This document shows positions 3,582 through 42,061 of a DNA stretch of 54,629 nucleotides, one piece after another. A program made the position numbers and the translations under genes. Numbering within the stretch: position 1 is the stretch's first letter; every line of letters begins with the position of its first letter. This stretch comes from a candidate division FCPU426 bacterium (lineage in GTDB: Bacteria; Oederibacteriota; JAJYGY01; DAIDJD01). The notes under the pieces are model-generated. The model was not told where the DNA came from and made no database searches. It worked only from the letters and a program-made list of their open reading frames with translations. The stretch covers positions 1 to 54,629 of the forward strand of contig DAIDJD010000013.1 in assembly GCA_027451505.1 (NCBI GenBank), read 5' to 3'.

Positions 3582-3630
3582 CCCGCCGAGGGGTGGGGGG
3601 CCTCCGAAGTCTGCTCCGTCCGGGCACGGG

Positions 3631-3660
3631 AAAAAAAAGGCCCGGCCGAGAGGCCGGGCC
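3631..3660 (-). terminator. Rho-independent terminator of the repeat-protein gene
   Basis: On the minus strand, GGCCCGGCC-tctc-GGCCGGGCC is followed directly by T8. It lies 28 nt after the stop at 3688. Confidence 0.75.
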
Positions 3661-3687
3661 TTGGGGGAACGCGTCGGTTCTTGGCGC

Positions 3688-4290
3688 TTACGGGGTGGCC
3701 GTGGCCACCGGGGTGGGCACCGCGGTGGGAGCTGCGGTGACCGTGGGCATCGGGGTCGGCGCGGTGGTCGGCGCCGCCGTCGGGGCCGGGGTTTCGTCCC
3801 CGTCGCTGTCCGCGTCCACCGGGGTCGGCCAGGGGGTTCCGTTCCAGGTCGGCCAGGGGGTCAGGACAGGCGTCGGGAAGGGCGTGCCATTCCAGGTCGG
3901 CCAGGGCGTGATCGCCGGGGTCGGGAAGGGCGTGCCGTTCCAGGTCGGCCAGGGCGTGATCGCCGGGGTCGGCTCCGGGGTCTCGGCGCTTTCGTTCTCA
4001 GTCGGCCACGGGGTGATCGCCGGGGTCGGGAAGGGCGTGCCATTCCAGGTCGGCCAAGGCGTGACCGCCGGGGTCGGGAAGGGCGTGCCGTTCCAGGTCG
4101 GCCAAGGCGTGACCGCCGGGGTCGGCCAGGGTGTGCCGTTCCAGGTGGGGAACGGCGTCACGGTGACGTTGGGGTGCGGAACAAACCGATATCCGAAATA
4201 GTCGTACGCGTGGGACAGCGAAGGCATCAGGGCCACGATCAGCCCCGCTAAGCCCAGCCATCGCACGACTTTCTTGGTGCCTTCGCGCAT
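3688..4290 (-). CDS. Secreted Trp/Pro/Thr-rich tandem-repeat protein (unknown family)
   Basis: ATG at 4290 with GGAGG 5 nt upstream. Signal-peptide-like N-terminus [28 protein letters not shown]. Seven tandem units of [15 protein letters not shown](I/V), then a Pro/Thr/Ala tail. It has its own sigma-54 promoter and terminator. Confidence 0.75.
3814..4158 (-). repeat. Coding tandem repeat: 48-nt unit x6 plus one degenerate 57-nt unit
   Basis: Near-identical units (ggccagggcgtgatcgccggggtcgggaagggcgtgccRttccaggtc) are visible directly. They encode the 16-aa protein repeat. Confidence 0.9.
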
Positions 4291-4340: not shown

Positions 4341-4356
4341 TGCAAGCGCCGTGCCA
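4341..4356 (-). promoter_or_regulatory. Sigma-54 (-24/-12) promoter: TGGCAC-ggcgc-TTGCA
   Basis: The reverse complement of 4341-4356 is TGGCACGGCGCTTGCA, an exact match to TGGCAC-N5-TTGCW. It lies ~50 nt upstream of ATG 4290. An NtrC-family activator with a GAFTGA motif is encoded next door. Confidence 0.7.
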
Positions 4357-4477
4357 CGCTTTGACCCATATGCACCAAGGGTTTTCCAAGAAAATTTCCC
4401 GCGACGCGTACAAATTTTTGAACCGAATGCGCTAATTTTCGAACTTCCCGTGTATTGGAATCACGCTTCCTTCCGGA

Positions 4478-5131
4478 TCAGCGCGCCGCCAAAATCTCGG
4501 CGCGCAGGGTCCAGACCCGCGCCGCCAGACTCGGATCGGTGGAGGCCGTTTCCAGGGGCTTGAGGGCCTCCAGGGCGGCGCGCCGCTTGTGGGATCCGTG
4601 CCAAAAGGCCCAGGCCAGGGCGTAACGGGCCTCGGCCAAGCGCGGCTCAAGGCTCAGGACGCTCTCGAACTCGACGGCGGCGGCCCCCGGCTGGCTGTGG
4701 GCGAGGTACACCAGGCCCAGGTAGTAATGCACCAGGGGCAGGCTGCGGTCGAGGCGGTTGGCCAGCCGCAGTTCGTTGAACGCGCTTCCCAGCTGGCCTT
4801 GGTCATAGTCCAGGCGGCCGAGGTAGTAATGGGTCGCGGGCATGGCCGGGGCCTGGGCCGCGGCGGCCTCCAGAAGGGCGCGCGCCTCGGCCAGACGGCC
4901 GAGATGGTACAGGCATTCCCCCAGGTAAAAGCGGGCCTCCAGGCTCTTGGGATCGGCCGCCAAAGCGGCGCGCAGGCCGGCCTCGGCGGCGTTGAGGCGC
5001 CCCGCCCTGAGATCGCGCACGCCGCGCAGGAAGTCGGCGCGGCCCGCGGTCTGGGCCCCGCAAAGGGGGGCGGCCAGGCAGGCGCCCAGCAGCCCCAGGA
5101 TCAGCCAACGTTCAACCGGCCTCGGAACCAT
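4478..5131 (-). CDS. Secreted TPR-repeat protein
   Basis: 217 aa; ATG at 5131. Signal-like WLILGLLGACLAAPLCGAQT. Repeated TPR-like A-x-x-x-Y/F-x-L-G helices. Overlaps the response-regulator gene by 20 nt. Confidence 0.8.
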   Translation of the reverse strand: MVPRPVERWLILGLLGACLAAPLCGAQTAGRADFLRGVRDLRAGRLNAAEAGLRAALAADPKSLEARFYLGECLYHLGRLAEARALLEAAAAQAPAMPATHYYLGRLDYDQGQLGSAFNELRLANRLDRSLPLVHYYLGLVYLAHSQPGAAAVEFESVLSLEPRLAEARYALAWAFWHGSHKRRAALEALKPLETASTDPSLAARVWTLRAEILAAR

Positions 5132-6461
5132 CGCACAGGCCCTCCAACGCGTATTTCTGGATCTTGTACTGGATGCCCGAGCGCGACAGCCCGAGCCTAC
5201 GGGCCGCCCGCGAACGGACTCCGCCGCTCTCCACGAGGGCCCGGCGGATGAGTTCGGATTCGGTGCGCTCCATGGCCTCGGCCAGGGTGAGGCCGCCCAC
5301 GGAAACGGCCCCGGCGGCGGCGTCGGGCGGCCGGGGCGCGAGCGGCTCCCCCCGGTTGAAGACCACGGCCTGCTCCACCAAATTCTGGAGCTCGCGCACG
5401 TTCCCCGGCCAGTGGTACCGCTCCAGCCCGGGCAGGCACTCCGGGTCCAGGCCCGGCCAGGGCTTTCCCTGGGCCGCGCAGAACTGGCGGCCGAAGTGCT
5501 CGGCCAGAAGGCGCACGTCGCCGCGGCGCTCGCGCAGGGGCGGCAGATGGATCCCCACGACGCCGAGGCGGTAGTAGAGGTCCCCGCGGAAGGCCCCCTG
5601 CGCGGCCAGGGCGGCCAGGTCTCGGTTGGTCGCCGCCACCAGGCGGAAGTCGGCCCGCAGCGTGCGCACGCCGCCCACGCGCTCGAATTCGCGCTCCTGA
5701 AGCACGCGCAGGAGCTTCACCTGCACCTCGGGGGGGATCTCGCCCACCTCATCGAGGAAGAGCACCCCTCCCCGGGCCATTTCAAAGCGCCCGGCGCGGG
5801 CCGCCACCGCCCCGGTGAAGGCGCCCTTTTCGTGCCCGAACAGTTCGCTCTCGAGCACGCCCGGGGCCAGGGCCGCGCAATGGACGCTCACGAAGGGCCC
5901 ATCGCGCCGGGGTCCCAGCCGGTGGAGGGCGCGGGCGGCCAGCTCCTTGCCGGTCCCGGACTCGCCGGTCAGCAGCACCGTGCTGGGGGCGGGCGCGGCC
6001 TGGCGCAGGGCCTCCAGGACGGAGGCCAGGGCCGGGCTGGAGCCCAGAAGGGCCCGCGGGCCCAGGTCCTCCTCGAGGCTGCGGCGCTTGCCCTCCTGGG
6101 CCCTCCGCCCCAGGGCCTTGCCCAGCTTCAGTTCGAGCTCCTCCATCAGGAAGGGCTTCACCAGGAAGTCCTCGGCGCCCAGGCGCATGGCGCGCACCGC
6201 CTCCTCCACCCCGCCGTGGGCCGTCACCACGAACACGGGCAGGTCCGGGTCGTTGCGGTGGATCTCCTCGAGCAGGCCGAGGCCGTCGAGTCCCGGCATG
6301 CGCAGGTCGGTCACCACCGCGTCGGCTCCGCGCCGGCCGAGCCATTCCAGGGCGCCCCGCCCGTCCGCGGCCTCGGCCACCTCGTGCCCGGCGGCGCCGA
6401 GCCAACTGCTCAGGGTCGCCCGCATTCCGGGGTCGTCGTCCACCACCAAAAGGGTGCTCAC
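5112..6461 (-). CDS. Sigma-54-dependent response regulator (NtrC family: REC + AAA+ + Fis-type HTH)
   Basis: GTG at 6461 with AGGAGG 5 nt upstream. REC domain (LLVVDDDPGMR...DLRMPGLDG), Walker A GESGTGKE, GAFTGA motif (GHEKGAFTGA), and a C-terminal HTH (AARRLGLSRSGIQYKIQKY). Confidence 0.92.
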   Translation of the reverse strand: MSTLLVVDDDPGMRATLSSWLGAAGHEVAEAADGRGALEWLGRRGADAVVTDLRMPGLDGLGLLEEIHRNDPDLPVFVVTAHGGVEEAVRAMRLGAEDFLVKPFLMEELELKLGKALGRRAQEGKRRSLEEDLGPRALLGSSPALASVLEALRQAAPAPSTVLLTGESGTGKELAARALHRLGPRRDGPFVSVHCAALAPGVLESELFGHEKGAFTGAVAARAGRFEMARGGVLFLDEVGEIPPEVQVKLLRVLQEREFERVGGVRTLRADFRLVAATNRDLAALAAQGAFRGDLYYRLGVVGIHLPPLRERRGDVRLLAEHFGRQFCAAQGKPWPGLDPECLPGLERYHWPGNVRELQNLVEQAVVFNRGEPLAPRPPDAAAGAVSVGGLTLAEAMERTESELIRRALVESGGVRSRAARRLGLSRSGIQYKIQKYALEGLCDGSEAG

Positions 6462-6470
6462 GCGTCCTCC

Positions 6471-7937
6471 TTAGGTCCCGCCGCGGGGCAGCCGCATGCG
6501 GAAAAGGGCGCCCCCTCCGGGGGCCGCGTCCGCCTCGAGGTCCCCGCCGTGGGCCTGGGCCGCCCGGCGCGCCAGCGCCAAGCCCAACCCGGTGCCCGCG
6601 GCCTTGGTGGTGAAGAAGGGCTCGAAGAGGCGGCCCCGGGCCTCCGGGGCCACGCCCGGGCCCTGGTCGGCGACCTCCAGGAGCGCGTCGCCGCCCTCGT
6701 GGCGCAGCCTGAGTGAGACGCGCCCGCCCGCGGGCATGGCCTGCAGCGCGTTCAGGCCCAGGTTGAGCAGGGCGCCCTCCAGAAGGGCCGGGTCGCAGCG
6801 CAGGATCCGCGGTTCCTCCGACAACGCTTCGACTTCGTGCGCCGACCCGGCGGTTTGGCGCAGGTCCTGCGCCAGGCGCTCGAGCAGGGCCCCCAAGTCG
6901 GCCTCGCGCAGGTCGGGTTTGGGCACCCGGCCGAGTTCGAGGAAGCGGCTGACCATGCGCTCCAGGCGCGCGACCTGGGAACGGATGTGGCCCAGGGGCC
7001 CCTCCGCTTCCGGTCGGGGCCCCAGCGCGCGCTCCAGCAGGTCGGCCTGCCCCCGGATCACGGTGAGGGGATTGCGCACCTCGTGGGCGATGGCCGAGGC
7101 CACCCGGCGCATCTCCTCGCTCCGGCTTTCGGCATGGTCCTTCTCCAGGCGCGCCTCCAGGTTGGCCAAGGTGAGGCTGCGCAGCGAGGCCGCCGCCGCG
7201 CTCAAGGCGCGGCTGAGTTCGTGGCCGCCGGGCCCGGGCCGGCCGGGCGGGGGCCCCCCGCCAAGGGCGCCTTCGAGCCAGCCCAGGGGCGAAAGAAGCC
7301 AGGCCGCCAGCCCCGCGCCCAGCACTAGGCACAGACCCAGCCCCAGGGCCCCCGCGGCCAGGCTGGCCCTGCGGAAGCCCGCCAGGACCTGCAGGTACGC
7401 CGGGTCCACAAGCATCTGCAGGATGAGGCCCCGGCCCAGCGGGGTGAACACCGACTGGTCGCGGGTGCCGAAGCTGGTCGGCCGCGGCGGATGCACCAAG
7501 GTCCAGCCCGCGCGCAACCGGGCCCAGTCGTCCGGTCCCAGTTCCGGGGTGAGGAACCCCGGCACGCGGTCTCCGGTGGCGTCGATCAGCACCAGGCCGC
7601 GGGAGTCCAGCACGGCCAGATCCCGGGCCAGGCCGGCCGAACGCGAGCCGTCCAGCGCCGCCTCCAGGACGCGGTCGCGCGTCCCGGCGGGCCCGGGCGC
7701 CGTGGCCAGGGCCCCACCCAGGCGCGCGGCCAGGAGCCGCGCCTCCACGGCGAGTTGCCGGTCCATCGCCGCGCGCAGCCCCCGGGCCACGCGGAGGTAC
7801 ACCCAAACGCCGGCGCCCGCCGACAGAAGGGTCCACAGCCCGGCCAAGCCTATGGCCAACTGCCAGCGCAACGACAGCCACCAAGGCGCTCCGGCGCGGG
7901 CCCGGCGGGCCGTCCCAACGGCGCTCAGCGTCCCCAT
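6471..7937 (-). CDS. Sensor histidine kinase (two TM segments, periplasmic domain, HisKA + HATPase_c)
   Basis: ATG at 7937 is preferred; it overlaps the upstream stop by 13 nt (the track start is 8006). H-box ASAIAHEVRNPL; G-boxes DQGPGV and GTGLGLA. Confidence 0.85.
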   Translation of the reverse strand: MGTLSAVGTARRARAGAPWWLSLRWQLAIGLAGLWTLLSAGAGVWVYLRVARGLRAAMDRQLAVEARLLAARLGGALATAPGPAGTRDRVLEAALDGSRSAGLARDLAVLDSRGLVLIDATGDRVPGFLTPELGPDDWARLRAGWTLVHPPRPTSFGTRDQSVFTPLGRGLILQMLVDPAYLQVLAGFRRASLAAGALGLGLCLVLGAGLAAWLLSPLGWLEGALGGGPPPGRPGPGGHELSRALSAAAASLRSLTLANLEARLEKDHAESRSEEMRRVASAIAHEVRNPLTVIRGQADLLERALGPRPEAEGPLGHIRSQVARLERMVSRFLELGRVPKPDLREADLGALLERLAQDLRQTAGSAHEVEALSEEPRILRCDPALLEGALLNLGLNALQAMPAGGRVSLRLRHEGGDALLEVADQGPGVAPEARGRLFEPFFTTKAAGTGLGLALARRAAQAHGGDLEADAAPGGGALFRMRLPRGGT

Positions 7938-9811
7938 CCTATCCCCGCGTACCCCAGCATGGTGGCGTTGCTGAAGGCCTGGATGTTGCTGGTGTCGGCG
8001 GCCCACTGGGCGCCGACGAACACGGAGAAGCCGCCCGGCAGCCCGCGGTCGAGTTCCAGGTCGGCGTAGCCCTGCTCGTCAAGGCGCCCGCCCGCGGGCA
8101 GGTTGGGCGGCGAGGCCGGCCACCAGAGGTAGGCCTGGGGGGTCCACACCCCGGTGAAGGACACGTAAAAGCCCTTGGGCAGCATCAGGCGCGCGTTGAT
8201 CGAGGCGAAGGCGTTGTCGTAGCCCCACATCGTGTCCCCGGGCCACACGGGCCGGGCCAGGCGGCCGCCCAGGATCAGTCCGAGCAGGTCGCCCCGACGC
8301 GACATCCAGGTGGCCCCCAGGGTGGGCAGAAGGCTGTTGTCGTCGTAGGGCGCGTAGGTGGGGAAGCGCTCGGCCAAGGCCTGGATCCCCAGGGAAAACG
8401 GCTGCATCCCCAGGACGCGGCCGTCGAGCTCGGTGCGCGCGGAGACGACTTCGTAGTTGGCGGGCGCGTTGTTCCAATGGATGAAGTTCTGGCGCACCCC
8501 GCCGTTGCCGTCCAGGAGGGCGCTCCAGCGCGGATTGAAGGTGTAGCGCACCAGGGCGTCCAGGCTGGAAAGGGGTTGCCCGACGTTGAGGGGCTGGCCC
8601 GGGTACTGGTAGGGAACGATGAACATGCCGTAGGACAAGGTCGCGGCCACGCGCTTGCCCAAGGCCAGTCCGTAGCTGAGGTTGAGTTCGTCCTGGCTTC
8701 CCAGGGAGCGGGTCCGCACAACGCCGGCGGCGGTGTCGCTCTGGTTCACCTGGGGCCCGGCCATGAGGCGCACCGAGCCGTGCAGGCCCATGCCGGCCTG
8801 GGCCGGTACCTGGCCCAGCTCGGACTGGGCCAGGAGGCCGAACCCTCCGGCCGGCCCCAGCGCCGCGAGCGAGGCCAGGGTGTCCCGGGCCGCGGCGGCC
8901 TGGCCGGTGCGCTGCTGGTATTTGGCCTTGAGGTAGAGCCCTCCGGGATGGCGTGGATCCAGGGCCAGGCAACGTTCCAGCGCCCGGAGCATGCCCGGCC
9001 CGTCTTTGAGGCGGTAGCGGGCCAGGGCCAGGCTATACCAGCAGTCCGGCGCCTCGGGCGAGACCGCGCAGGCCCCGCGGAAACAGGCCTCGGCCCGTTT
9101 GGCGTCCCCGCGCTTGAGCCAGGCGTTGCCCCAGGCGATGTCCCGGGCGGCCTCCGGTCCCGGCGTCTGGATCCCGGGCCGGGCCAGGACACGCGCCAGG
9201 GAGGCGTCCTGGGGATCCAGGGCGCGGGCCCGGGCCAGGGCCTTGCGCGCCTCCTGGTCGCGTCCCAGGCGCTCCAGGCAGATGGCTTCGCCCTTCCATC
9301 CCAGGGGGCTGCGCGGATCCTGCCGCACCGCGGCGCCGAAGGCGGCCAACGCATAGGTGACTTGGCCGGCCTGGAGGCCCTGCTCGCCCACGGCCAGGGC
9401 ATAGGGCTCCCCCAACCTGAGCAGCAGCGCGGCGCTGGCGTGGTCGCTGGGCGAACGCTCCAGCGCCGCCTCGGCCCAGCGCCGCGCGGAGCGGCGCCGG
9501 CCCAAGACAAAGGCGCACGCGGCCACCCCGTAGTAGGCGGCGCCTTCGCCGGGTTCGCATTGCGCGGCCAGGACAAAGGCCCGCATGGCTTGGACATAGG
9601 CGTGGCGCAGGTACCAGGCGCGCCCCTGGGCCAGGAAGTCTTGGGCGCAAGGCGTCGCGGCCCGCGCGCTGCCTGAGAACACCAAAACCACCAGCACCCA
9701 AAACCACAATCGTTTGTATTTTTTAAGATAAAGCTCGCGCGCGCTTCTGAACTCAAAATCCTTTAAAAAACGATTGTCTGTGGCCTGCGCACCGCTGGGA
9801 CTTCCTGGCAA
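7925..9811 (-). CDS. TPR-repeat protein with a predicted C-terminal outer-membrane beta-barrel
   Basis: The N-terminal ~300 aa hold multiple TPR-like helical pairs after a signal-like KKYKRLWFWVLVVLVFSGSARA. The C-terminal ~300 aa have an alternating-hydrophobic strand pattern rich in G/Y/W/N and end ...MLGYAGIGWGR. The start is uncertain: TTG at 9811 in the track, with no in-frame ATG before the signal peptide. Confidence 0.65.
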   Translation of the reverse strand: MPGSPSGAQATDNRFLKDFEFRSARELYLKKYKRLWFWVLVVLVFSGSARAATPCAQDFLAQGRAWYLRHAYVQAMRAFVLAAQCEPGEGAAYYGVAACAFVLGRRRSARRWAEAALERSPSDHASAALLLRLGEPYALAVGEQGLQAGQVTYALAAFGAAVRQDPRSPLGWKGEAICLERLGRDQEARKALARARALDPQDASLARVLARPGIQTPGPEAARDIAWGNAWLKRGDAKRAEACFRGACAVSPEAPDCWYSLALARYRLKDGPGMLRALERCLALDPRHPGGLYLKAKYQQRTGQAAAARDTLASLAALGPAGGFGLLAQSELGQVPAQAGMGLHGSVRLMAGPQVNQSDTAAGVVRTRSLGSQDELNLSYGLALGKRVAATLSYGMFIVPYQYPGQPLNVGQPLSSLDALVRYTFNPRWSALLDGNGGVRQNFIHWNNAPANYEVVSARTELDGRVLGMQPFSLGIQALAERFPTYAPYDDNSLLPTLGATWMSRRGDLLGLILGGRLARPVWPGDTMWGYDNAFASINARLMLPKGFYVSFTGVWTPQAYLWWPASPPNLPAGGRLDEQGYADLELDRGLPGGFSVFVGAQWAADTSNIQAFSNATMLGYAGIGWGR

Positions 9812-9992: not shown

Positions 9993-10373
9993 CTACCTCA
10001 AAAGTTTTTTCAACTCACGGGTGATGAGCTTGGGCAGCTTGGCTTTGAACGCGGCCACCGCATCCTTGGCGATGCGTCGGGCTTCGCGCTGCTTCACATA
10101 ACCCTTCAAAGGAACCGCGGAGGCCGAGACGCCTTTGGGGCGGCCGGATCCACGCTTCGCGGCACCCTCCTTCGTCGGCCGGGGTCCCTTGGGCCGTCCC
10201 GGCTTGTTCTTGGATCCCTTGGGCCGACCTGGCTTGTTCTTGGATCCCTTGGGCCGACCCGGCTTGTTCTTGGATCCCTTGGGCCGTCCCGGCCCGCGCT
10301 TGCCGCGGCCACGACGCGGGCGTTCGGCGCCGACTTCGTGCTTGGGAGTGATTTCCGTGGACATTTCCGCCAT
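9993..10373 (-). CDS. AT-hook repeat DNA-binding protein (HMGA-like GRPKGSKNK repeats)
   Basis: 126 aa; ATG at 10373 with AGGAG 6 nt upstream. Contains RGRGKRGPGRPKGSKNKPGRPKGSKNKPGRPKGSKNKPGRPKGPRP...GSGRPKG, which gives five GRP cores. Basic helical C-terminus. Confidence 0.75.
   Translation of the reverse strand: MAEMSTEITPKHEVGAERPRRGRGKRGPGRPKGSKNKPGRPKGSKNKPGRPKGSKNKPGRPKGPRPTKEGAAKRGSGRPKGVSASAVPLKGYVKQREARRIAKDAVAAFKAKLPKLITRELKKLLR
10186..10295 (-). repeat. Coding 30-nt tandem repeat (3 full copies plus a partial one)
   Basis: The unit cccttgggccgNccYggcttgttcttggat is visible directly. It encodes KPGRPKGSKN. Confidence 0.85.
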
Positions 10374-13954: not shown

Positions 13955-15885
13955 GCCCCGGACCCCGGTCCGAAGCCGCCGTTGAGGACGGGCCAGCGGC
14001 ACCAGGTGCGCGGATCGACGCTGTGGTCGTCCAGGTGCAGGGACACCGCCAGGCGCTCGCGCTTCCACTGGGAGCCCGACCACAGCGCGTAGAAGGAGCG
14101 CGTCCACTCCGCGAGGTCGTCCCCGGGTTCGCCGGGGAAGTCGCCGCGCAGGGCCTCCAGCGCGCCCTCGGGGGGCAGGCGCCGGACCACGGCGGAGCGC
14201 TCCAGCGCGTCGAGCACCGCGTAGGGCATCAGGTCGTCCTCGTCGGTCTGGCGGTCCTCCAGGGGCCGCAGCTCGGCGGTGGGAGCCTGGTCGTTGACCG
14301 CCTTGAGGGCCGGGACCGGCCCCAACTCCCGCGGACCCCGCTCCTCCATCCACCGCAGCCAGCCCCTGAGGAAGTCCTTGCCCACCCCGGCCACCGGGGC
14401 CAGGCCGCCGCTGGTGTCACCGTCCATGGAGGTGTACCCCGTGGCCGCCTCGCTGCGGTTGTTCGTCGCCAGCAGAAGCCGGCCCTCGGCGTTGGCCAGG
14501 GTCCACACCGCGGGGGACCGCACCCGGGCCTGGAGGTTCTGCAGCGTGAGGTCGTCCTCGGGCCAGCCCAAGGGCCGCCCCAGGACGCCTTCGGCCAGGC
14601 TCCGGTAGGCGTCGACGAGGTGTTGCACCTCCACGGCGGCGTGGGCCGAGCCCACGGCGCGGGCCACCCCCTCGGCCGCGGACCGGGTCGTGGCCGAGGA
14701 GTGCGCCGTGGCTTGGTAGAGGGTGCGCAGCAGCACGGGCATGGCCGCGGCTTGGCCGCCGGCGGCCGCGATCCCGGGAACGTCCGGAAGCCGCGCGGCG
14801 AAGCCCTCGAAGCCGAGCTCGTCGACGGCGAAAGCGGCCATCAGCCGGACCAGCAGCGCGCAGGCGGCCGAGTCCGCGCCCCCGGAAAGGCTCAGGCAGA
14901 ACCCGCGGGCCCGGCTTTTGCGGAGGTAGTCGAAGATCCCCAGGGCCCCGGCCCGCGCGAAGTCCTCGCGCGGATCGGCAGCCTCGTGGGCGGCCGGGTC
15001 GCCCAGGGACGGCGGGGGGGGGGAGGCCGGCAGGGCCGGCGGGAAGGGGTCCCGCACCAGACCCGCACCCTCCACCGGGGCGGCGCGCCGGACTTCGACG
15101 TCGGCGCAGACCAGCCCCACGTCGCGGTAGCTGAAGCGCGCTCCGCGGGCCGCCACCGCCCCGTCCGGGTGGAGGAGGAAGGCGCCCCCGTCGTAGACCG
15201 CGCGCCCGCTTTCGTTGCCCATGAGGTTGGCGTAGGCGTAGGCCAAGCCGTGGTCCGCGGCCGCCCCGACCCCCAGGCCCAGACGGACCGCCTGCTTTCC
15301 CGGGGCGTAGTGGCTCGCCGCCGGGCCGAAGATGAGGTTGGCCCCGCGCCGGGCCAGGCGCGGGGCGGGCCTTTCCGGCCCGCCCCAGGCGTCCTCGCAG
15401 ATCTCGAAACCCAGCACGGCCCCGCCGCAGGCGAAGAGCAGGTCCCCCACGGGGACCTCGCGCCCCAGAACCTCCGCGCGCTCCACCCGGCCCGGCTCCC
15501 AGGCCCGGAACCAGCGCGGCTCGTAGTGGATGCCGTCCCGGGCCAGGCGCTGCTTGGGCACCAGGCCCAAAAGGCGGCCGTCCGCGCACACCGCGACCGT
15601 GTTGTAGAGCGCCCCCCCCAGCTCGAAGGGCAGCCCAAAGGCCGTGCACAGCCCCTGGGTGCGCCCCACCAGGACGCCCAGTTCGGCCAGGGCCCTCTCC
15701 CGCAGGAACGGGGCGAGGAAGAGGTCTTCGCAGCCGTAACCCGTGACGGCCAGTTCGGGAAGGCAGAGGTGGGAGACGCCCGCGGCCCGGGCGAGGTCGA
15801 GGGCCCGGGCGAGGTTCCCCCGGTTGGCGGCCCAGGCCAGCGGCGTCTGGTTCACGAACGCCGCGCCCAAGCGCACGGTGCTCAC
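13951..15885 (-). CDS. nadE: Glutamine-dependent NAD+ synthetase (CN-hydrolase domain + NAD synthetase domain)
   Basis: The GTG at 15885 overlaps the upstream stop (GTGA); 644 aa. The N-terminal nitrilase-like domain has LCLPELAVTGY and FEICEDAW. The C-terminal domain has the PP-loop LSLSGGADSA. The 1370-aa track ORF is an artefactual upstream extension. Confidence 0.9.
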   Translation of the reverse strand: MSTVRLGAAFVNQTPLAWAANRGNLARALDLARAAGVSHLCLPELAVTGYGCEDLFLAPFLRERALAELGVLVGRTQGLCTAFGLPFELGGALYNTVAVCADGRLLGLVPKQRLARDGIHYEPRWFRAWEPGRVERAEVLGREVPVGDLLFACGGAVLGFEICEDAWGGPERPAPRLARRGANLIFGPAASHYAPGKQAVRLGLGVGAAADHGLAYAYANLMGNESGRAVYDGGAFLLHPDGAVAARGARFSYRDVGLVCADVEVRRAAPVEGAGLVRDPFPPALPASPPPPSLGDPAAHEAADPREDFARAGALGIFDYLRKSRARGFCLSLSGGADSAACALLVRLMAAFAVDELGFEGFAARLPDVPGIAAAGGQAAAMPVLLRTLYQATAHSSATTRSAAEGVARAVGSAHAAVEVQHLVDAYRSLAEGVLGRPLGWPEDDLTLQNLQARVRSPAVWTLANAEGRLLLATNNRSEAATGYTSMDGDTSGGLAPVAGVGKDFLRGWLRWMEERGPRELGPVPALKAVNDQAPTAELRPLEDRQTDEDDLMPYAVLDALERSAVVRRLPPEGALEALRGDFPGEPGDDLAEWTRSFYALWSGSQWKRERLAVSLHLDDHSVDPRTWCRWPVLNGGFGPGSGA

Positions 15886-17324
15886 CCCAGCCCCACCAGG
15901 GAAAGGGAGGAGATGGTGTCCCCCATGCCCACCAGCGTCACCGGCTTGTCGATGAGGATGGTGGGCACCGCCACCACATGGAAGTCCGCGCAGGAGCCCA
16001 TGCCGGTCTCGGCCAGGGCGTCCAGCCCGTGGGCCGCGGCCAGGTGCGCGGCCAGGGCCTTCAACTCGGACAGGCTGTGCTCCGACACTTCGCGCCCGTG
16101 CGCCCACAGGAGGTTTTCGGCGCGGTCCAGGCTTCCGGTGCCGGCCTTGGCCGCCGCCACCGTGGCCGCGAAGGCCATGCCGTCGCGGTTGGCGCGGGGC
16201 TCGAACACCGGGCCCCGGGCGGCCTCGGCGGGCCGGATCAGGGTGATGTAAAGGCCGAACATGTGCAGTTGGACGCGCTTGAGCCCGAGCGCCTGGTAGA
16301 CCTTGAGGAGCCCCTTGAACAGGTTCACCGCGCCCAGGGACTGGCACTCGCGCGCCAGGGACTGCTCGCCCAGGACCTCGAGGATGCCGATGAGCTCCTG
16401 CTCGTTGCAGCCCACGCTGTCGGCGCGGGGGGCCAGGAAGCGGGCCAGCTCCTCGCGGATCTTCAGGTCCTGGGTGCTGGCGAACTCGAAATGGACCACC
16501 GCGCCGGGGTGGGCCTCCTTCCACCTTGAGACCCGGGCCCACGAGTCCGCGATGCGCGCCAGCCCGGAGCCGGGGGCGCCGCCCGTTAGCGGCTCGGTGA
16601 GCATCTGATAGCCGCTGAGCAGGATGAAGTCGAGGGGGTGCCCCGGCCGGGAAAGCGCCGCGTCGAAGGCGTCGTCCAGTTCCAGGCGGAAGTTGAGGGG
16701 GTCGTAGGTGGCGATGAAGCGGTTGCTCTTGGGGCAGGTGAGTTTCAGGCCGCCCAGCTCCAGCTCCGCGCCCTTGTCGAACTCGAGGATCCAATGGATG
16801 AGCGGGCGGTCGCCGGGCCTGTCCACGCCCCGGGCCGGGACCAGGGCCCCCGCGGAGTCCGTGCTGACCAAGCTGTCGTGGTCCAGGAAGAGGCCGGCCT
16901 GCTGGGCGGGCAGGCTGGCGCAGTGCACATAGACCCTGCGGGCGCCGGCCACGGCCAGGACATTGGCGATGATGCCCCCCTGGCCGCCCATCTGCAGGCG
17001 GTCGTAGCCCAGGCGTGCGGCCATCCAATCGAAAGTGGACTCGCGGGCCACCAGCCATTCCTGGGCCACGCCCTTGGAGAAGCACTCCACGAAGCCGCGC
17101 AGCAGGTCCACGGGTTCGTCGATGCGCCGGGCCCCCTTGTTGAGGACCTGCCATTCGTCCGCGCCCAGGTCGCCCATCCATTCCACCACCCGCCCCGGGG
17201 CCACCTTGAGCACGGCGTCGATGTTGGCGTTGAAGACGCTGGCCACCCCGGAGACGCGCCGGAAGCGCTCCAGGTGTCCGGGCACGTGGGCGTAATGTTC
17301 CTTCCAGGCGCGCTTGAGATCCAT
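15882..17324 (-). CDS. ADP-dependent sugar kinase (ADP-dependent glucokinase/phosphofructokinase family)
   Basis: 480 aa; ATG at 17324. Block-by-block match to Pyrococcus ADP-GK as I remember it: FNANIDAV, RLQMGGQGGIIANVL, VHFEFASTQDLKIREE...VGCNEQELIGILEVLGE, RVQLHMFGLYITL, and the C-terminal VGMGDTISSLSLVG. Confidence 0.85.
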   Translation of the reverse strand: MDLKRAWKEHYAHVPGHLERFRRVSGVASVFNANIDAVLKVAPGRVVEWMGDLGADEWQVLNKGARRIDEPVDLLRGFVECFSKGVAQEWLVARESTFDWMAARLGYDRLQMGGQGGIIANVLAVAGARRVYVHCASLPAQQAGLFLDHDSLVSTDSAGALVPARGVDRPGDRPLIHWILEFDKGAELELGGLKLTCPKSNRFIATYDPLNFRLELDDAFDAALSRPGHPLDFILLSGYQMLTEPLTGGAPGSGLARIADSWARVSRWKEAHPGAVVHFEFASTQDLKIREELARFLAPRADSVGCNEQELIGILEVLGEQSLARECQSLGAVNLFKGLLKVYQALGLKRVQLHMFGLYITLIRPAEAARGPVFEPRANRDGMAFAATVAAAKAGTGSLDRAENLLWAHGREVSEHSLSELKALAAHLAAAHGLDALAETGMGSCADFHVVAVPTILIDKPVTLVGMGDTISSLSLVGLG

Positions 17325-17357
17325 AGGGTCCCTTCGGCTGCGGGGAGGGCGACGGCA

Positions 17358-26790: not shown

Positions 26791-27666
26791 TCACTCTTCT
26801 CCTTCGTCTCCTTGAGCTTTCGATGGTTGCGACGGCTCGGAGCCCGGCTTTTCGGGCTGCAACAGGCCGTCGATGCCTGTGTAGGGGTTGAACCGGCTGC
26901 TCAACGGCCGGTTGGCCAAGTTGGCTCCGGTGGGGAACCCGAAACCGTTGCGGCCATCGTCGTAGCCGCGGTAGCCGACCCGGTTGCCGAAGTCGTCGCC
27001 GCGGTTGCCGGCGGCGCCCCGGTCCCGGTACCCGCCGCCGCCGCCGTTGTTGCCGCCGCGGTACCCGCCTCCACCTCCGCCGCCGCGGTAGTCGTAGCCG
27101 TTGCCCATGGTCACCGGGCGGGATTCGTTGCGGAAAGGCTGACGCGTCTGCGGTTCGCGGGGTTCCCGCCCCTCGCGCGGCTCCCGCGGCTCCCGCGGCT
27201 GGCGGGGTTCCCTGGCGTCGCGTCCTTCCCGTCCCTCACGCCCGTCGCGTCCCTCCCTCGCTTCGCGCCCATCGCGCCCCTCCCGGGGCTCGCGGTGTTC
27301 GCGGAACTCGCGGTCCTCATCCTCGTCACCGCTGCCGTGCTGCCCGGGAGGCAAGGGCGCGCAGGCCTTCTCCGCGTCCACGCCGAGCTCCTCGCAGCGC
27401 TTCCTGAATTCCTCGATGGCGTTGGCCTGCACCAGTTCCTTCAGGCCGCGCTCCATGTAGTAATAGTCCTCGAAGCCCTTGACCGGCTGGCCCTCCCGCT
27501 TGCGGCTGGGAAAGCTGAGGTAGAGGCCGTTGGCGCCCCGCACCAGGGCCATGCTGTTCAGGAACAGCGCGCCGGCCTCGGTGATGATTTTGCAGCTGAC
27601 GAACGCCGCGGTCTTGCTGTTCTCCCCGTGCACCATGTGGATGCGGAGGTTTTCAAAAGCAGGCAT
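26791..27666 (-). CDS. SpoVG-like N-terminal domain fused to an RE-triplet/RGG-YG low-complexity tail
   Basis: ATG at 27666 with GGGAG upstream; 291 aa. The first ~95 aa follow the SpoVG pattern (…AFVSCKI…ALVRGANGLYLSFPSRK…). Residues ~119-172 are (R-E/D-x)n, and residues ~186-244 are GGGGGGGYRGG…GYRGYDDGRNGFGF. Confidence 0.6.
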   Translation of the reverse strand: MPAFENLRIHMVHGENSKTAAFVSCKIITEAGALFLNSMALVRGANGLYLSFPSRKREGQPVKGFEDYYYMERGLKELVQANAIEEFRKRCEELGVDAEKACAPLPPGQHGSGDEDEDREFREHREPREGRDGREAREGRDGREGREGRDAREPRQPREPREPREGREPREPQTRQPFRNESRPVTMGNGYDYRGGGGGGGYRGGNNGGGGGYRDRGAAGNRGDDFGNRVGYRGYDDGRNGFGFPTGANLANRPLSSRFNPYTGIDGLLQPEKPGSEPSQPSKAQGDEGEE

Positions 27667-27833
27667 GGCTGCTCCCAACAATGATGGACGCGTCCAGACA
27701 TAAGGTTCCGGACCCCACCGCCGCGAAAACCGCGGCGGGCCTTCCAAACGCCCCGGGCCACCGGCCCAGGGCGTGCCCACCGATCAACGCATGGATCGCC
27801 TCCTGGGGTCCCCTCCGCGGCCCGGATGGGCGC

Positions 27834-36393: not shown

Positions 36394-38406
36394 TCAGCGG
36401 ATGCGCGCCACGAAGGCGCCGCCGAGGTCGAGGCGTTGCGTCCGCGGCAGCGCGCGGAGCGCCGCGACCCACGCCATAAAGCGGGCCTCGGCTTGGGCGT
36501 CGCCGACGGGCCAGTAGGGTTGCTCGGATCCGGTTCGCAACTGGCCCATCCAGGGTCCGAAGTTGAAATACACGAAATCATACCCCTTCGCCCGCACCCT
36601 GGCATCCACCTCCTGGGGCGAGCGCGCCCGTCCCACCCACTCGGCGAGGGGATGCCGGTCGTAGACGCTGGCCGCCAGGCAATCCGGGGGCAGGTACGCC
36701 GTGCGTTCGTCCCCCAGGACCAGGACCCCGGCCCCTTCGGGTTTCTGCGCCAGGATCCAGGCCCCGACGGCGGCCTGGGGCACCCCCATGCGCCCGAGGT
36801 AAGCCTCCGGCGCCTCCAAGCCCAGGGCCACGGGCAGGGGATCGAAATCCTTCACCGCGATGGCCAAGGTCTGGGCCGCGGTGAACAGCAGGCCGGCCAC
36901 CACGAGCCCCTGCCAAAGGCGCGCCCATCCGCGGGAGGCGGCCCTGGTTTCGGCTTCCGAAACCCCATGCGCCGCCAAAAGCGCGGCCGCGGGAACCAGG
37001 CAGACGCCGTAACGCAGGACATGGGGACCGAGAAGCCAGCCCAGGCATCCCAGCCCAAGGTAGGCCAGGATCCAACGCAAGGGTCGGTCCAGCCGCCCCG
37101 TGAGGCAGGCCGGCGCCAGGGCCAACAGGAGCACCCCCAAGATGCCGTCCGCGCCGAGGCTGCCCGCGTCGAAAAACGCGGCCCAGGGGAGGCGCACCCA
37201 AGCCCACAACCCGCGCCCGCCGAAGCCGCCCACGTGCCGGAAGTAGGAGGCCGGCCCCCCGTCGAAGAACGTCAGCCCGAACAGGCGCAGGGGGAACGGA
37301 TAAAAGGGCTGCCCCTTGAGCGCCAGGCCCTGGGCCATCCAGGGGACCAAGGGCACCAGGAAAAGGCCGACCGCCGTGAACAGCAGGCCGGGACGGCGCC
37401 AGGACCGTTCCCGCCAGGCCAAGGTCCCCAGCAGCGCCAGCAACGCGGCGGCGTGGATGAGCGCCACGGGCTTGCACGCCACCGCGGCGCCGGCCAGCAG
37501 GGCGCTGAGCAGGATCCAGGAGTCCTGGGTCCGGCGGACCGGGTCCACCAACCCCAGCAGGAAGGCGTCCAGGGAGGCGAAGGCGAAGAACACGGACCAG
37601 GCGTCGGGGGAGAAGACCCCGAAGCTGAGGGCGAGGAGGGGCTGGGTCAGGGCCAGAGCCGGCGCCATCCAGATGCGTCGTTCCTGGAAGAGCCGCGCCG
37701 AGGCATCCACGAGCAGCAGGCCCAAGGCCCCATAAAGGGCCAGGTCCAGCAGCCCGGCGGCCTGGGCCGAGACCCTGGGGGAGCCGTCCACGGCGAGGGC
37801 CCAGGCCCACACCGGCGTGGGCAGGGAGGGCAGCCAGGTGAAAAGGACATGGTCCTGGGGCCTCAGCCAACCGGAAGCGGCCGCGTGCTGGGCCTGGGCC
37901 AGGTGGTAGACCAGCGCATCGAAGAATTTCGGGGGGGCCAGGCACATCGCCGCCACCGGAAGCGCGGCCAGGGCCAGGGCCAGGACGGTGGCCACCTCGA
38001 GGCTCGAGCCGGACCACGGGCGCTTGGAGCGCAGGCTGCGGCGCAGCGTCTCGCCCAGGGACTCGGCGTGGCCCCAGCACACCAGGCAGATGACGCCCAA
38101 CAGGGCCCGGCACAGCCACGGATAGAGGGCCCCGGCCGCGCCGATGGCCGAACCCAGCAGCGACAGCGCCAACAAACCCAGCGCCAGGCTGAGGACTGCC
38201 TCCTCCACGAGGGAACCGTGGAACAGCCGGAACCGGCGCAGGGCCAGGCGCCCCAGAAGCAGGGCCGTGAGCAGCACGCCCCCGGCGGAGGCGGCGGCGC
38301 CCGCCAACGCCGCGGCGCCGCCCAAGGGTACGGGATAGCGCCAAGCCTCCACGGCCAGGAGGCCCGCCAACCAGGCCAGCAGGATCAGGAATTTGAGCCG
38401 CCGCAT
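36394..38406 (-). CDS. Large polytopic membrane protein, GT-C-like, with a C-terminal soluble domain
   Basis: 670 aa; at least 12 predicted hydrophobic segments. Early-loop motif PPKFFDALVYHL. The C-terminal ~130 aa are soluble. The family assignment is tentative. Confidence 0.6.
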   Translation of the reverse strand: MRRLKFLILLAWLAGLLAVEAWRYPVPLGGAAALAGAAASAGGVLLTALLLGRLALRRFRLFHGSLVEEAVLSLALGLLALSLLGSAIGAAGALYPWLCRALLGVICLVCWGHAESLGETLRRSLRSKRPWSGSSLEVATVLALALAALPVAAMCLAPPKFFDALVYHLAQAQHAAASGWLRPQDHVLFTWLPSLPTPVWAWALAVDGSPRVSAQAAGLLDLALYGALGLLLVDASARLFQERRIWMAPALALTQPLLALSFGVFSPDAWSVFFAFASLDAFLLGLVDPVRRTQDSWILLSALLAGAAVACKPVALIHAAALLALLGTLAWRERSWRRPGLLFTAVGLFLVPLVPWMAQGLALKGQPFYPFPLRLFGLTFFDGGPASYFRHVGGFGGRGLWAWVRLPWAAFFDAGSLGADGILGVLLLALAPACLTGRLDRPLRWILAYLGLGCLGWLLGPHVLRYGVCLVPAAALLAAHGVSEAETRAASRGWARLWQGLVVAGLLFTAAQTLAIAVKDFDPLPVALGLEAPEAYLGRMGVPQAAVGAWILAQKPEGAGVLVLGDERTAYLPPDCLAASVYDRHPLAEWVGRARSPQEVDARVRAKGYDFVYFNFGPWMGQLRTGSEQPYWPVGDAQAEARFMAWVAALRALPRTQRLDLGGAFVARIR

Positions 38407-38418
38407 CGGGCCCCCGTT

Positions 38419-39633
38419 CTAGCCGCCGGCCCGGGCCGCGCGGACGTTGAGGACTTTGAGCCGGCGCCATTGGCCCGCCGACCAAGCCCACCATGCGAGA
38501 TTGGCCGCGGCCCACGCGAACATGAGGCCCGGGATCGGCCTGGGTGGGGCCCAGGCCGCGGAACCGGCCAGCACACCGGGCAGGACCAGCGCGTAGAAGC
38601 CGGCGGCCAGCGCCAGGGCCGGGACGCTCAACCGCAGGCACAGGCCCGGCGACCAAGCCAGGGCCAGGGCCGGCGCCCACAGCAGGTATTGCGGGGAAAG
38701 CCCGGGCGCCAGGAGCGCCAGGGTCAGCCCCGCCCAGGGGAGCGCCGCCGCCAGGCGCAGGTCGCGGGGGTGGGACACGGCCCAGGCGAAAGCCGCCGCG
38801 ATCAGCGCCAACGCCGCGTCCCGGTAGCCCGCGTCGGCGGCGCGCCACAAAGCCGGGTCCACCCTCAAGGCGAAGCAGGCGGCCCGCAGGGCCCCGGAGG
38901 GACCCAGGGCGTTGGCCCCGGTGTAGGCTAGGCGCTCCCACACCGGACGAAACCCGTCCGCGGCGATCCAGGGCAAAGGCAGCACCGCGGGCAGCGCCAG
39001 GGTCTTGGCTGCGAACCGCAGGCGGTCCCGCGGGGCCGGAAAGACGCCCATGAAGGCGGGCAGCAGGAGCGCGGGCCAAGTCTTGAGGGCCACCGCCAGG
39101 CCCAGGCACAGCGCCGCCCTCGACTCGCCGCGAGGATGGGGCGAATACTCCAGGAGCCAGGCCGCGGCCAGGACCAGGGCCAGGACCAGGGAGTCGAATT
39201 GCCCGTGGCCGGCGCCCACGATCCAGGCCAGGGGGTTGAGGACCCACACGGCGCCGGCGGCGAGCCCGGCGCGCCGGGGGTCGCCCATCGGCGTGGGGCC
39301 GGGAAGGCCCGCCCGGCGCGCCGCGAACAGATAGGCCAGGCAGGCCACGGCCGAATCCCCGGCCACCGCGGGAAGGCGGAACCAGACGCCCGGATCGCCC
39401 CCCCACCGGGAGGCCAGCCGGCCCAGGAGACGCACCAGGGCCCACCACGCCGGGAGGTAGGGATAGCGGCCCGCCAGGGCGGGCGAGACGTAGAGCCCGG
39501 CGGCGGGACAGGCCGCCACGCGGGCGTAGCTTTCCAGGTCGAACGGCGCGCCCCGGCTCAGGACCAACAACGGAAGGCGGACGCAGGCCGAGGCCAGGGC
39601 CAGCAGCGCGAGGTCGCGCGCCTTGGGACTCAC
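38419..39633 (-). CDS. Polytopic membrane glycosyltransferase-like protein (DUF2029/GT87-like)
   Basis: The GTG at 39633 overlaps the upstream TGA (GTGA). 404 aa, multi-TM, with an early acidic loop motif GAPFDLESYARV. Tentative. Confidence 0.6.
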   Translation of the reverse strand: MSPKARDLALLALASACVRLPLLVLSRGAPFDLESYARVAACPAAGLYVSPALAGRYPYLPAWWALVRLLGRLASRWGGDPGVWFRLPAVAGDSAVACLAYLFAARRAGLPGPTPMGDPRRAGLAAGAVWVLNPLAWIVGAGHGQFDSLVLALVLAAAWLLEYSPHPRGESRAALCLGLAVALKTWPALLLPAFMGVFPAPRDRLRFAAKTLALPAVLPLPWIAADGFRPVWERLAYTGANALGPSGALRAACFALRVDPALWRAADAGYRDAALALIAAAFAWAVSHPRDLRLAAALPWAGLTLALLAPGLSPQYLLWAPALALAWSPGLCLRLSVPALALAAGFYALVLPGVLAGSAAWAPPRPIPGLMFAWAAANLAWWAWSAGQWRRLKVLNVRAARAGG

Positions 39634-41141: not shown

Positions 41142-42061
41142 GGCGCGCTTCCCCGCGGCTCCTGGCCCGGCCCGGGAAGCCCGGGCGCGTCCGGAAGGTA
41201 GGGGGCCGGGACCTCAATGCCCCGGGCCCGCCGCCCCAGATCCTCGCGGGTCTCCTCCGCGTCCCTGCGGCGCGCGGCTTGGAAATAACGGGCCAAGTCG
41301 CGGCGCGCGTCGTCCGGGCGGCCGAGGGCCGCGTCGGCCTTGCTCATCCCCCACCAGGCCTCGGGCCGCCAGGCCGGCAAGGCCAGGCAGCGGCGGTAGT
41401 CCCGCCGGGCGTCGCGGACCCGCCCCGAGTCCAGGAGCAGTTCGCCCCTGCGCAACAGGACTTCCCCGTTGTCCGGGTCGGCGGCGAGCGAACGCCCGTA
41501 ACAGATGAGCGCCCGGTCGTTCCTGCCGGCCAGCTCCCAGATCTGGCCGAGGTTCTCCCAGGCTCCGGCGTAATGCGGGTCCAGGCGCACGGCCTCACCG
41601 TAGCAGCGCCCGGCAAGTTCCAGCCGGCGGGCGTCCTCCTCCAGCATGCCCAAAAGGTTCCAGGCCCCGGCGTAGCGCGGCATCAGGCGCTCCCCCCGGC
41701 GGGCCGCCCACAGCGCCAGCGGGCGGTCGCCGCCTTGGCGTTCGTCCAGGGCGAGGGCGCAGTACGCCGGACCCAGACTGGGGTCGTGGCCCACCGCCAG
41801 GCGCTGGGCGTCCGCGGCGGCGCGGTAGTCCCCCAGCGCCGCCCGCGCCAGCCCCAGCCAATACCACGCCAGGGCCGAGGAGGGGGACCGCCGGGTGAGC
41901 GCCTCGAAGCGCTCCTGGGCAAGCTCCAGGCGTCCCGCGGCGAACAGGCGGGCTCCCTCCTCGCGCAGGGACCCGGCGGCGGGGCCGCGCCCCGCGCCGG
42001 GGGCGGCGGGAAGGGCGGCGCTGCCCAGCGCGGCCCATGCCAGCAACGCCCCGCGGATCAT
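41138..42061 (-). CDS. Secreted TPR-repeat protein
   Basis: 307 aa; ATG at 42061. Signal-like ALLAWAALGSAALPAAPG. Multiple TPR-like units (AWYWLGLARAALGDYRAA…, AGAWNLLGML…, AGAWENLGQIWE…). Confidence 0.75.
   Translation of the reverse strand: MIRGALLAWAALGSAALPAAPGAGRGPAAGSLREEGARLFAAGRLELAQERFEALTRRSPSSALAWYWLGLARAALGDYRAAADAQRLAVGHDPSLGPAYCALALDERQGGDRPLALWAARRGERLMPRYAGAWNLLGMLEEDARRLELAGRCYGEAVRLDPHYAGAWENLGQIWELAGRNDRALICYGRSLAADPDNGEVLLRRGELLLDSGRVRDARRDYRRCLALPAWRPEAWWGMSKADAALGRPDDARRDLARYFQAARRRDAEETREDLGRRARGIEVPAPYLPDAPGLPGPGQEPRGSAP

Follow-up and report, generated by a model that had tools for sequence, protein, structure and literature searches.

A putative sigma-54 signalling cassette that joins a histidine kinase to two TPR proteins in an uncultured FCPU426 bacterium

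Introduction

How might an uncultured bacterium tie the state of its envelope to the expression of the proteins that it secretes? The question is raised by a four-gene locus in a 54,629-nucleotide stretch of DNA from a candidate division FCPU426 bacterium (NCBI GenBank assembly GCA_027451505.1, contig DAIDJD010000013.1, positions 1 to 54,629), which is called the window here. The locus encodes a large protein with tetratricopeptide repeats (TPR) and a putative outer-membrane beta-barrel, a sensor histidine kinase, a sigma-54 activator, and a small TPR protein. An earlier note, made from the sequence alone, had seen in these genes an undescribed signalling and export unit dedicated to a repeat protein encoded next to them. 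Here, we ask what this cassette controls, whether it recurs elsewhere, and to which known systems it is comparable. We find that the cassette most likely switches on the neighbouring repeat-protein gene, and that the same arrangement, including the promoter, is found in independent metagenomic contigs.

Two groups of described systems bear on the question. PrsK, PrsR, and PrsT are encoded in PEP-CTERM/exosortase loci (Haft et al. 2006, PMC1569441), PrsT being a TPR lipoprotein (PMC1569441); PrsT and an RpoN-dependent PEP-CTERM gene have been tested in Aquincola (PMC9850573). The Slam/DUF560 proteins are exporters that combine an N-terminal periplasmic TPR domain with a 14-stranded outer-membrane barrel, and have been reported from Proteobacteria (PMC8406197, PMC5449769). 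The cargo known for type XI secretion has an 8-stranded, TbpB-like barrel domain at its C-terminus (PMC8406197). No description of the gene arrangement reported here was found in the literature.

Results

Organization of the cassette

The four genes run in one direction on the minus strand, from 9811 to 4478. The TPR/beta-barrel gene (7925-9811; 628 aa as the longest open reading frame) is followed by the genes for the kinase (6471-7937; 488 aa, ATG start), the activator (5112-6461; GTG start), and the small TPR protein (4478-5131; 217 aa). The junctions read exactly as first described for these co-directional genes: a 13-nt overlap between the TPR/barrel and kinase genes (ATGGGGACGCTGA), a 9-nt gap between kinase and activator (TAAGGAGGACGCGTG) with a strong GGAGG ribosome-binding site before the GTG start, and a 20-nt overlap in which the start of the small TPR gene overlaps the activator stop codon (ATGGTTCCGAGGCCGGTTGA). 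In this window of about 70% G+C, third-codon-position G+C contents of 0.87-0.92 back the kinase, activator, and large-protein reading frames on the minus strand. The small TPR reading frame was outside this screen and is backed by its Pfam matches and by its conservation in ten loci. The four genes of the cassette, its promoter and enhancer-like sites, and the target gene together span no more than approximately 6 kb.

Promoter, enhancer-like sites and target gene

The small TPR gene and the repeat-protein gene are separated by a stretch that contains a sigma-54 promoter, TGGCACGGCGCTTGCA (4341-4356, minus strand). This promoter matches the -24/-12 consensus TGGCAC-N5-TTGCA exactly and is followed, after about 50 nt, by the start codon of the repeat protein. 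It is the single match to this consensus on both strands of the 54.6-kb window, against 0.14 expected by chance. The gene that it precedes (3688-4290, minus strand) has a GGAGG ribosome-binding site and an ATG at 4290, and encodes a secreted protein of 200 aa. The signal peptide of this protein ends in ...SLSHA and is followed by approximately seven copies of a 16-aa unit, corresponding to a 48-nt tandem repeat of 6.6 copies; the mature protein consists of 27% Pro, 23% Thr, and 8% Trp and matches no Pfam or NCBIfam family. The unit is closed by an intrinsic terminator (3627-3662, minus strand) with a G+C-rich stem at 3662-3637 (11 pairs, of which 9 are G-C) and the T-run tail TTTTTTCCCG.

Upstream of the promoter are two enhancer-like sites on the minus strand. 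The proximal site, GGTTCAAAAATTTGTACG (4407-4424), starts 68 nt upstream of the -24 element and has the dyad form GTNC-A/T tract-GNAC, while the distal site, AGTTCGAAAATTAGCGCA (4428-4445), starts 89 nt upstream of it and was identified by a position-weight-matrix scan. The motif itself came from a Gibbs sampler, which was given 180 nt upstream of each of twelve promoters, without positional information. The sampler settled on an 18-nt dyad built around an A/T tract (consensus, opposite strand: TGTACAAATTTTTTGACG), and in 10 of the 12 promoters the site that it chose was 68-69 nt away from the -24 element. The later matrix scan added an eleventh, weaker site at 67 nt (locus L095), as well as a second, weaker copy at 87-90 nt in most promoters. 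In the window, the proximal site has the top matrix score (25.1, compared with at most 17 elsewhere), although it was itself part of the training set. Such fixed spacing is the layout expected of tandem activator-binding sites and is hard to explain by chance. On the simplest reading, the sites would be bound by the cassette's own activator. The link to the downstream repeat protein, proposed in the earlier note, is thus strengthened by a perfect sigma-54 promoter and conserved enhancer-like sites before its gene.

Kinase, activator and small TPR protein

The kinase matches Pfam HisKA (49 bits) and HATPase_c (80 bits) and has no HAMP match. It carries a strong hydrophobic segment at residues 190-221 (Kyte-Doolittle 2.2) and a borderline one at 28-46 (1.6), so that a kinase with two transmembrane segments, as originally described, is a reasonable interpretation. 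The segments flank a domain of approximately 145 aa, which belongs to no Pfam family and is predicted to be periplasmic. The activator matches REC (105 bits), the AAA+ family Sigma54_activat (219 bits), and HTH_8 (49 bits); with these three domains, an adjacent HisKA/HATPase_c kinase, and a sigma-54 promoter nearby, it has the attributes of an NtrC-type enhancer-binding protein. Comparison of the kinase with the GTDB genome collection yielded generic kinase/activator pairs, none of them with TPR genes. A full-length match at 31% identity, in locus L006, has an aldehyde dehydrogenase gene and unrelated genes as its neighbours.

The small TPR protein matches Pfam TPR families, has a signal peptide, seen as a hydrophobic N-terminus, and is predicted to be periplasmic. 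It is kept in 10 of 10 loci, including two variants that lack the barrel. By eye, the signal peptides of both TPR proteins are without a canonical lipobox. The possibility that the two are paralogues was considered and rejected, as they share only generic TPR similarity (E = 0.003).

The TPR/beta-barrel protein

The large protein probably starts later than its longest reading frame and earlier than its database entry. The likely start is a TTG at 9709, ahead of the signal peptide LWFWVLVVLVFSGSARA, whose signal-peptide-like segment LWFWVLVVLVFSG has a Kyte-Doolittle value of 2.37. The gene call in the database begins within the signal peptide, at 9682, and with 585 aa is probably too short. 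The DNA from 9682 to approximately 9760 is unusually A+T-rich for this genome, and its A/T tracts match the enhancer matrix weakly (9711-9728, score 16.5); for these reasons, the first 34 codons of the 628-aa reading frame are probably regulatory DNA rather than coding sequence.

The N-terminal half forms a TPR domain (8819-9667, minus strand; residues ~49-331) with approximately 17 helices in a single-sequence AlphaFold2 model. The domain is predicted to be periplasmic. TPR families match residues ~60-321, among them Pfam TPR_19, TPR_16, TPR_2, and related families at residues 146-321. The C-terminal half (7928-8788, minus strand; residues ~342-628) is a predicted 14-stranded outer-membrane beta-barrel that ends in a conserved tail, Y-x-G-[LIF]-x-[WY]-x-x (YAGIGWGR in the window protein). 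Its beta-amphipathic periodicity is higher than that of the TPR half. Whereas AlphaFold2 gave this half a predicted local distance difference test (pLDDT) value below 40 from the single sequence, an alignment of eight sequences produced 14 long antiparallel strands with a mean pLDDT of 80.3 and a predicted template-modelling score (pTM) of 0.73. When this model was compared with the PDB by Foldseek, every match was an outer-membrane barrel; OmpG and CymA, both 14-stranded, had the best template-modelling scores (~0.60-0.65). The barrel-like strand pattern that had been noticed by inspection is therefore borne out by the model, and the C-terminal half is predicted to be an outer-membrane beta-barrel, on the basis of a shallow alignment.

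This barrel has few relatives. The search of the 628-aa protein against outer-membrane protein families, which had been suggested as a check, gave no match of the barrel half to DUF560/Slam or to any other Pfam family even at E = 10, and none to an NCBIfam family; likewise, no relative was found among PDB sequences with either the single sequence or a profile. In an exhaustive HMMER search of 1.84 billion representative proteins, the domain was present in only 8 clusters. A word-indexed protein search with the barrel half, as a single sequence and as a 9-sequence profile, returned no match, not even the window's own protein; this reflects a limit of the method rather than absence, since relatives exist in the same collection. 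Two pattern-based scans of 185,579 GTDB species-representative genomes found no relative of the large protein, one using the single protein and the other a 5-sequence profile, which gave only TPR matches in Halobacteria. Judged by its sequence, the barrel protein belongs to no described family.

Conservation across loci

The gene order TPR/barrel, kinase, activator, small TPR occurs in eight independent loci, in agreement with the expectation that it would be conserved in relatives if the module is real. These are the window and seven others (L081, L082, L083 (= L091), L084, L087 (= L092), L094, and L095/L096), which were found through the contigs of activator orthologues and two barrel homologues. 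The cassette is thus rare and known only from uncultured bacteria, all of its relatives coming from metagenomes. The activator orthologues form a group with 60-72% identity to the window's protein, after which identity drops to 54%. Homology is also full-length for the other three proteins, at 35-40% identity for the large protein (barrel included; L081-L083), 52-60% for the kinase (sensor domain included; 41-59% in an alignment of its orthologues), and 37-57% for the small TPR protein. With the two barrel-less loci counted, all ten retain the kinase, the activator, and the small TPR protein. That the whole arrangement recurs in independent metagenomic contigs makes the observation more than a chance one.

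The promoter recurs with the genes. A sigma-54 promoter directly follows the small TPR gene in L081, L083, L084, L087, L094, and L095, as well as in the barrel-less L088; in every locus that extends far enough, the distance from it to the start codon that follows is 41-51 nt, except in L095, where it is 80 nt. The L082 contig ends at the small TPR gene. In addition, L081, L082, and L083 have a sigma-54 promoter before the operon, where it fronts a gene for a proline-rich, CxxC-containing secreted protein. Members of this upstream family are also encoded in L084, L087/L092, and L094, partly uncalled there, and are absent from the window and L095. Several of the genes (L081 6088-6702; L083 6149-6730; L082 ~6130-6698; L084 3-242; L087 1-335; L094 ~1933-2560) were missed or shortened in public gene calls. 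The family has a conserved FPCLLCP (CxxC) motif, with extra CxxC pairs in some members, and a C-terminal tag of the form WW[KRN]x(5)[LM]x[LE][NDE][AP][AS]D[LVI], for example WWRRDQHLMELDAADLE. A related motif, ...L[GN]A[AGS]DL, closes several of the downstream proteins; the window repeat protein has no clear copy of the tag.

The genes behind the downstream promoter are varied. Homologues of the repeat protein stand behind the same cassette in L094, with the same 10-aa unit, and in L081, with 35% identity and a related PTF[NS]GTP unit. The targets in L083, L084, and L087 consist of GTPG-x-LPPPPP-type repeats. In L095, the target (L095 11136-12518) is a secreted serpin (Pfam Serpin, 343 bits), and in the variant L085 it is a peptidase of the pro-kumamolisin type that has both a Thr/Pro-rich linker and a sorting domain for type IX secretion. 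The proposal of an undescribed signalling and export unit dedicated to the repeat protein therefore holds in part: no characterized system was matched, but the serpin and the peptidase speak against the word dedicated. The window repeat protein and seven related target proteins have no NCBIfam match and hence no known sorting signal of that collection.

A natural TPR-kinase fusion

One of the two barrel-less variants bears on the role of the TPR domain. In L085/L086 (L085 388-2070; L086 247-2070), next to an activator 62% identical to that of the window, a 607-aa protein fuses TPR and kinase in frame. Its TPR part is a complete barrel-family TPR domain, 63% identical to residues 2-285 of the protein P0126, and its kinase part starts just before the second membrane segment, with 72% identity to residues 141-483 of the L095 kinase. 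Missing from the fusion are the barrel, as well as the first membrane segment and the periplasmic domain that the kinase normally has, such that the TPR domain occupies the usual place of the sensor. Upstream of the fused gene are a sigma-54 promoter and the enhancer motif. The junction is present in two records, from JGI and Logan assemblies, which possibly derive from the same underlying reads. With its TPR domain standing in for the sensor, the fusion argues for a domain that would be periplasmic and work with the input side of the kinase. The second variant, L088, has an activator 54% identical to that of the window, a kinase with a HAMP domain, the small TPR protein, and the promoter. A profile search found no barrel in the large downstream proteins of L085 and L088.

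Surroundings of the cassette

Just upstream of the cassette, a gene at 9993-10373 (minus strand) encodes a 126-aa basic protein with four GRPKGSKNKP repeats that resemble AT-hooks. The gene contains a 30-nt tandem repeat (3.6 copies, 94% matches), its product has no Pfam match, and a hairpin-like G+C-rich stretch separates it from the start of the cassette. No sigma-70-like site was found between 3500 and 10500.

Further away, two large, apparently multi-pass membrane proteins without a Pfam match are encoded at 36394-38418 and 39630-41213 (both minus strand). They sit in a glycosyltransferase cluster with GT1, GT4, and WecA-like Glycos_transf_4 genes, a region with a very strong AT skew of up to +0.42. 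By eye, both resemble GT-C/PMT-like glycosyltransferases (e.g. ...LLDRDEGEY...); if they are of this kind, they could glycosylate Thr-rich secreted proteins. A gene at 15882-17357 (minus strand) belongs to the ADP-dependent phosphofructokinase/glucokinase family (PF04587, 229 bits), which is mostly archaeal and unusual in a bacterium. The pyruvate dehydrogenase E1 of the organism shares at most 63% identity with proteins that are scattered over many phyla, and so gives no taxonomic placement. Finally, the reading frame at 26791-27783 (minus strand) has no Pfam match; its product is SpoVG-like in its N-terminal part by eye and continues into a long low-complexity tail rich in Arg/Glu/Pro and Gly (REGRDGREAREGRDGREG...).

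Discussion

Proposed mechanism

We regard it as very probable that the kinase, the activator, the enhancer-like sites, the sigma-54 promoter, and the secreted-protein gene form one circuit. The membrane kinase would phosphorylate the NtrC-type activator, which would bind the two A/T-tract dyad sites, 68 and 89 nt ahead of the -24 element, and open the promoter at 4356-4341. The promoter would then drive the single gene for the Pro/Thr/Trp-rich repeat protein, up to the strong terminator. In most related loci, such a unit of promoter and enhancer-like sites also stands before the operon, and there the cassette would activate itself; the window is without that unit.

The place of the TPR proteins in this circuit is more tentative. 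We favour, at slightly less than even confidence, a sigma-54 envelope-signalling cassette in which both TPR proteins act on the periplasmic side as input or modulator partners of the kinase. The large one would be anchored in the outer membrane by its 14-stranded barrel, with approximately nine TPRs reaching into the periplasm, while the small one would be soluble in that compartment. As TPR domains typically bind extended peptides, their likeliest ligands would be the periplasmic domain of the kinase, the proline-rich products, or both; binding of the products would give feedback. Since the targets vary while the TPR proteins stay, the latter seem to be tied to the signalling core rather than to one cargo.

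Several observations weigh against this model. The distal enhancer-like site of the window scores only 6.9, and a search of the window ahead of the operon gave no sigma-54 promoter that would allow self-activation. The fusion, known from a single population, might be a deletion without function. The architecture of the large protein and the position of the upstream proline-rich genes, both discussed below, are also what an exporter would lead one to expect. More generally, we infer all function beyond the anatomy of the sequence.

Alternative explanations

The TPR/barrel protein could instead be a dedicated translocator, of the Slam/type XI or two-partner-like kind, that moves the proline-rich proteins to the surface; the small TPR protein would then be a periplasmic chaperone, and the two-component system would only regulate expression. 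A periplasmic TPR domain followed by a predicted 14-stranded barrel is the architecture of the DUF560 exporters (PMC8406197), and, as with Slam, the gene stands beside genes for secreted or surface proteins. In almost every locus, the barrel operon has proline-rich proteins with signal peptides encoded at its flanks. One such gene is immediately upstream of the barrel gene in 6 of the 8 barrel loci, overlapping it in L084, as cargo and transporter genes might be, and the C-terminal tag of this family, or the related ...L[GN]A[AGS]DL end of downstream proteins, could be a recognition signal. However, 0 of 9 barrel-family members match any Pfam model, DUF560 included, at E = 10. The TPR domain of the large protein spans approximately 280 aa, compared with approximately 140 aa in NilB, and its gene is hard-wired into a two-component operon. 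The neighbouring proteins, the presumed cargo, are low-complexity, disordered, and Pro/Thr-rich, and by eye do not resemble proteins with the 8-stranded barrel domain of known type XI cargo. Furthermore, the window's own repeat protein has no clear tag, L095 retains the barrel next to a serpin without the tag motif, and L085 retains the TPR domain, kinase, activator, and small TPR protein without the barrel, its target having a type IX sorting domain. On this balance, dedicated export is less likely than the signalling model but is its main rival. The signalling and export readings are not mutually exclusive. A combined export-and-report device, in which the barrel protein hands over or exports proline-rich surface proteins and reports their flux or an external cue through its TPR arm to the kinase, would have the small TPR protein as a competing or bridging partner and the TPR-kinase fusion as a short-circuited version; we consider it less likely still.

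Known systems with similar parts fit less well. The cassette shares with PrsK/PrsR/PrsT a transmembrane kinase, an NtrC-type sigma-54 activator, and a TPR protein that are encoded together, and single-gene operons for secreted low-complexity proteins with a -24/-12 promoter and an upstream motif. The single-gene sigma-54 targets with an upstream activator motif belong to the common logic of PEP-CTERM systems (PMC1569441), and both TPR proteins have weak matches to TIGR02917 (PrsT). Nevertheless, that the cassette is a divergent Prs system with the repeat protein as a degenerate PEP-CTERM substrate is extremely improbable. As the earlier note had argued, the two are distinct, all three NCBIfam scores falling far below their cut-offs. 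PrsK (TIGR02916) reaches 87.9 bits against a cut-off of 300 and covers only the catalytic core (model positions 513-679), not the N-terminal multi-pass sensor region of the model, and PrsR (TIGR02915) reaches 376.3 bits against 502.6, with AtoC (443.2) and NtrC (419.8) scoring higher. PrsT membership is defined by at least 312.2 bits and a TPR lipoprotein of about 900 aa, whereas the large and small TPR proteins score 44.8 and 51.7 bits, over short generic TPR stretches only. The cassette kinase differs in its sensor domain as well as in its two hydrophobic segments. Instead of one TPR protein, the cassette has two, the large one with an outer-membrane barrel that is not part of the PrsT description and the small one without a canonical lipobox by eye. 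No exosortase was matched among the window reading frames scanned, no PEP-CTERM or other sorting-signal family of NCBIfam matches the window repeat protein, as first noted, or its seven related targets, and neither exosortase nor polysaccharide genes stand beside the cassette, again as first described. The last point also bears on the comparison with exopolysaccharide export porins of the PgaA/BcsC/PelB kind, in which the two-component system would regulate matrix production. A TPR domain with a C-terminal barrel is indeed present, and the glycosyltransferase cluster lies 20-32 kb away in the window. The comparison nonetheless proved weak: none of the 9 loci has a synthase, deacetylase, or other polysaccharide gene beside the cassette, the predicted strand number of the barrel is 14 rather than the 16 described for PgaA homologues (PMC8406197), and the BcsC model, the sole one of such a family in NCBIfam, gives 24.3 bits against a cut-off of 858, a trivial TPR match to the small protein only. 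An export porin is hence very improbable.

Comparison with other signalling systems

Among named families, AtoS (159 bits) and ZraS (136 bits) score best for the kinase core, and AtoC (443 bits) and ZraR (375 bits) for the activator. These scores are far below the curated cut-offs, and the sensor domain of the cassette is unrelated. The Zra system acts through a sigma-54 promoter on the neighbouring gene of ZraP, a periplasmic protein that in turn feeds back on the system; the cassette differs by having no ZraP-like protein and by having TPR partners and an outer-membrane component. A looser parallel is offered by FecA-FecR-FecI, where an outer-membrane barrel with a periplasmic extension works with an inner-membrane signalling protein and a dedicated activator of neighbouring genes. 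By analogy only, the cassette likewise encodes a barrel protein with an inner-membrane signalling protein and a transcription activator. It has no TonB-dependent receptor fold, anti-sigma factor, or extracytoplasmic function (ECF) sigma factor, and uses a histidine kinase and sigma-54 instead.

Implications

While the practical impact is modest for now, given that the organisms are uncultured, the cassette is of interest in several respects. It defines an outer-membrane family, composed of a TPR domain and a predicted 14-stranded barrel, that is unmatched by any Pfam or NCBIfam model. Since 2006, sigma-54 two-component systems have been on record in which the TPR partner is unexplained (PrsK/PrsR/PrsT); the cassette provides a compact way into that question, with a clear predicted DNA site for the activator and a natural fusion suggesting that the TPR domain acts at the sensing end of the kinase. 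If the combined device were true, the cassette would be a two-component counterpart of FecA-type cell-surface signalling and an undescribed form of trans-envelope signalling. The fast-evolving proline-rich secreted proteins, for their part, may form part of the cell surface of this uncultured lineage.

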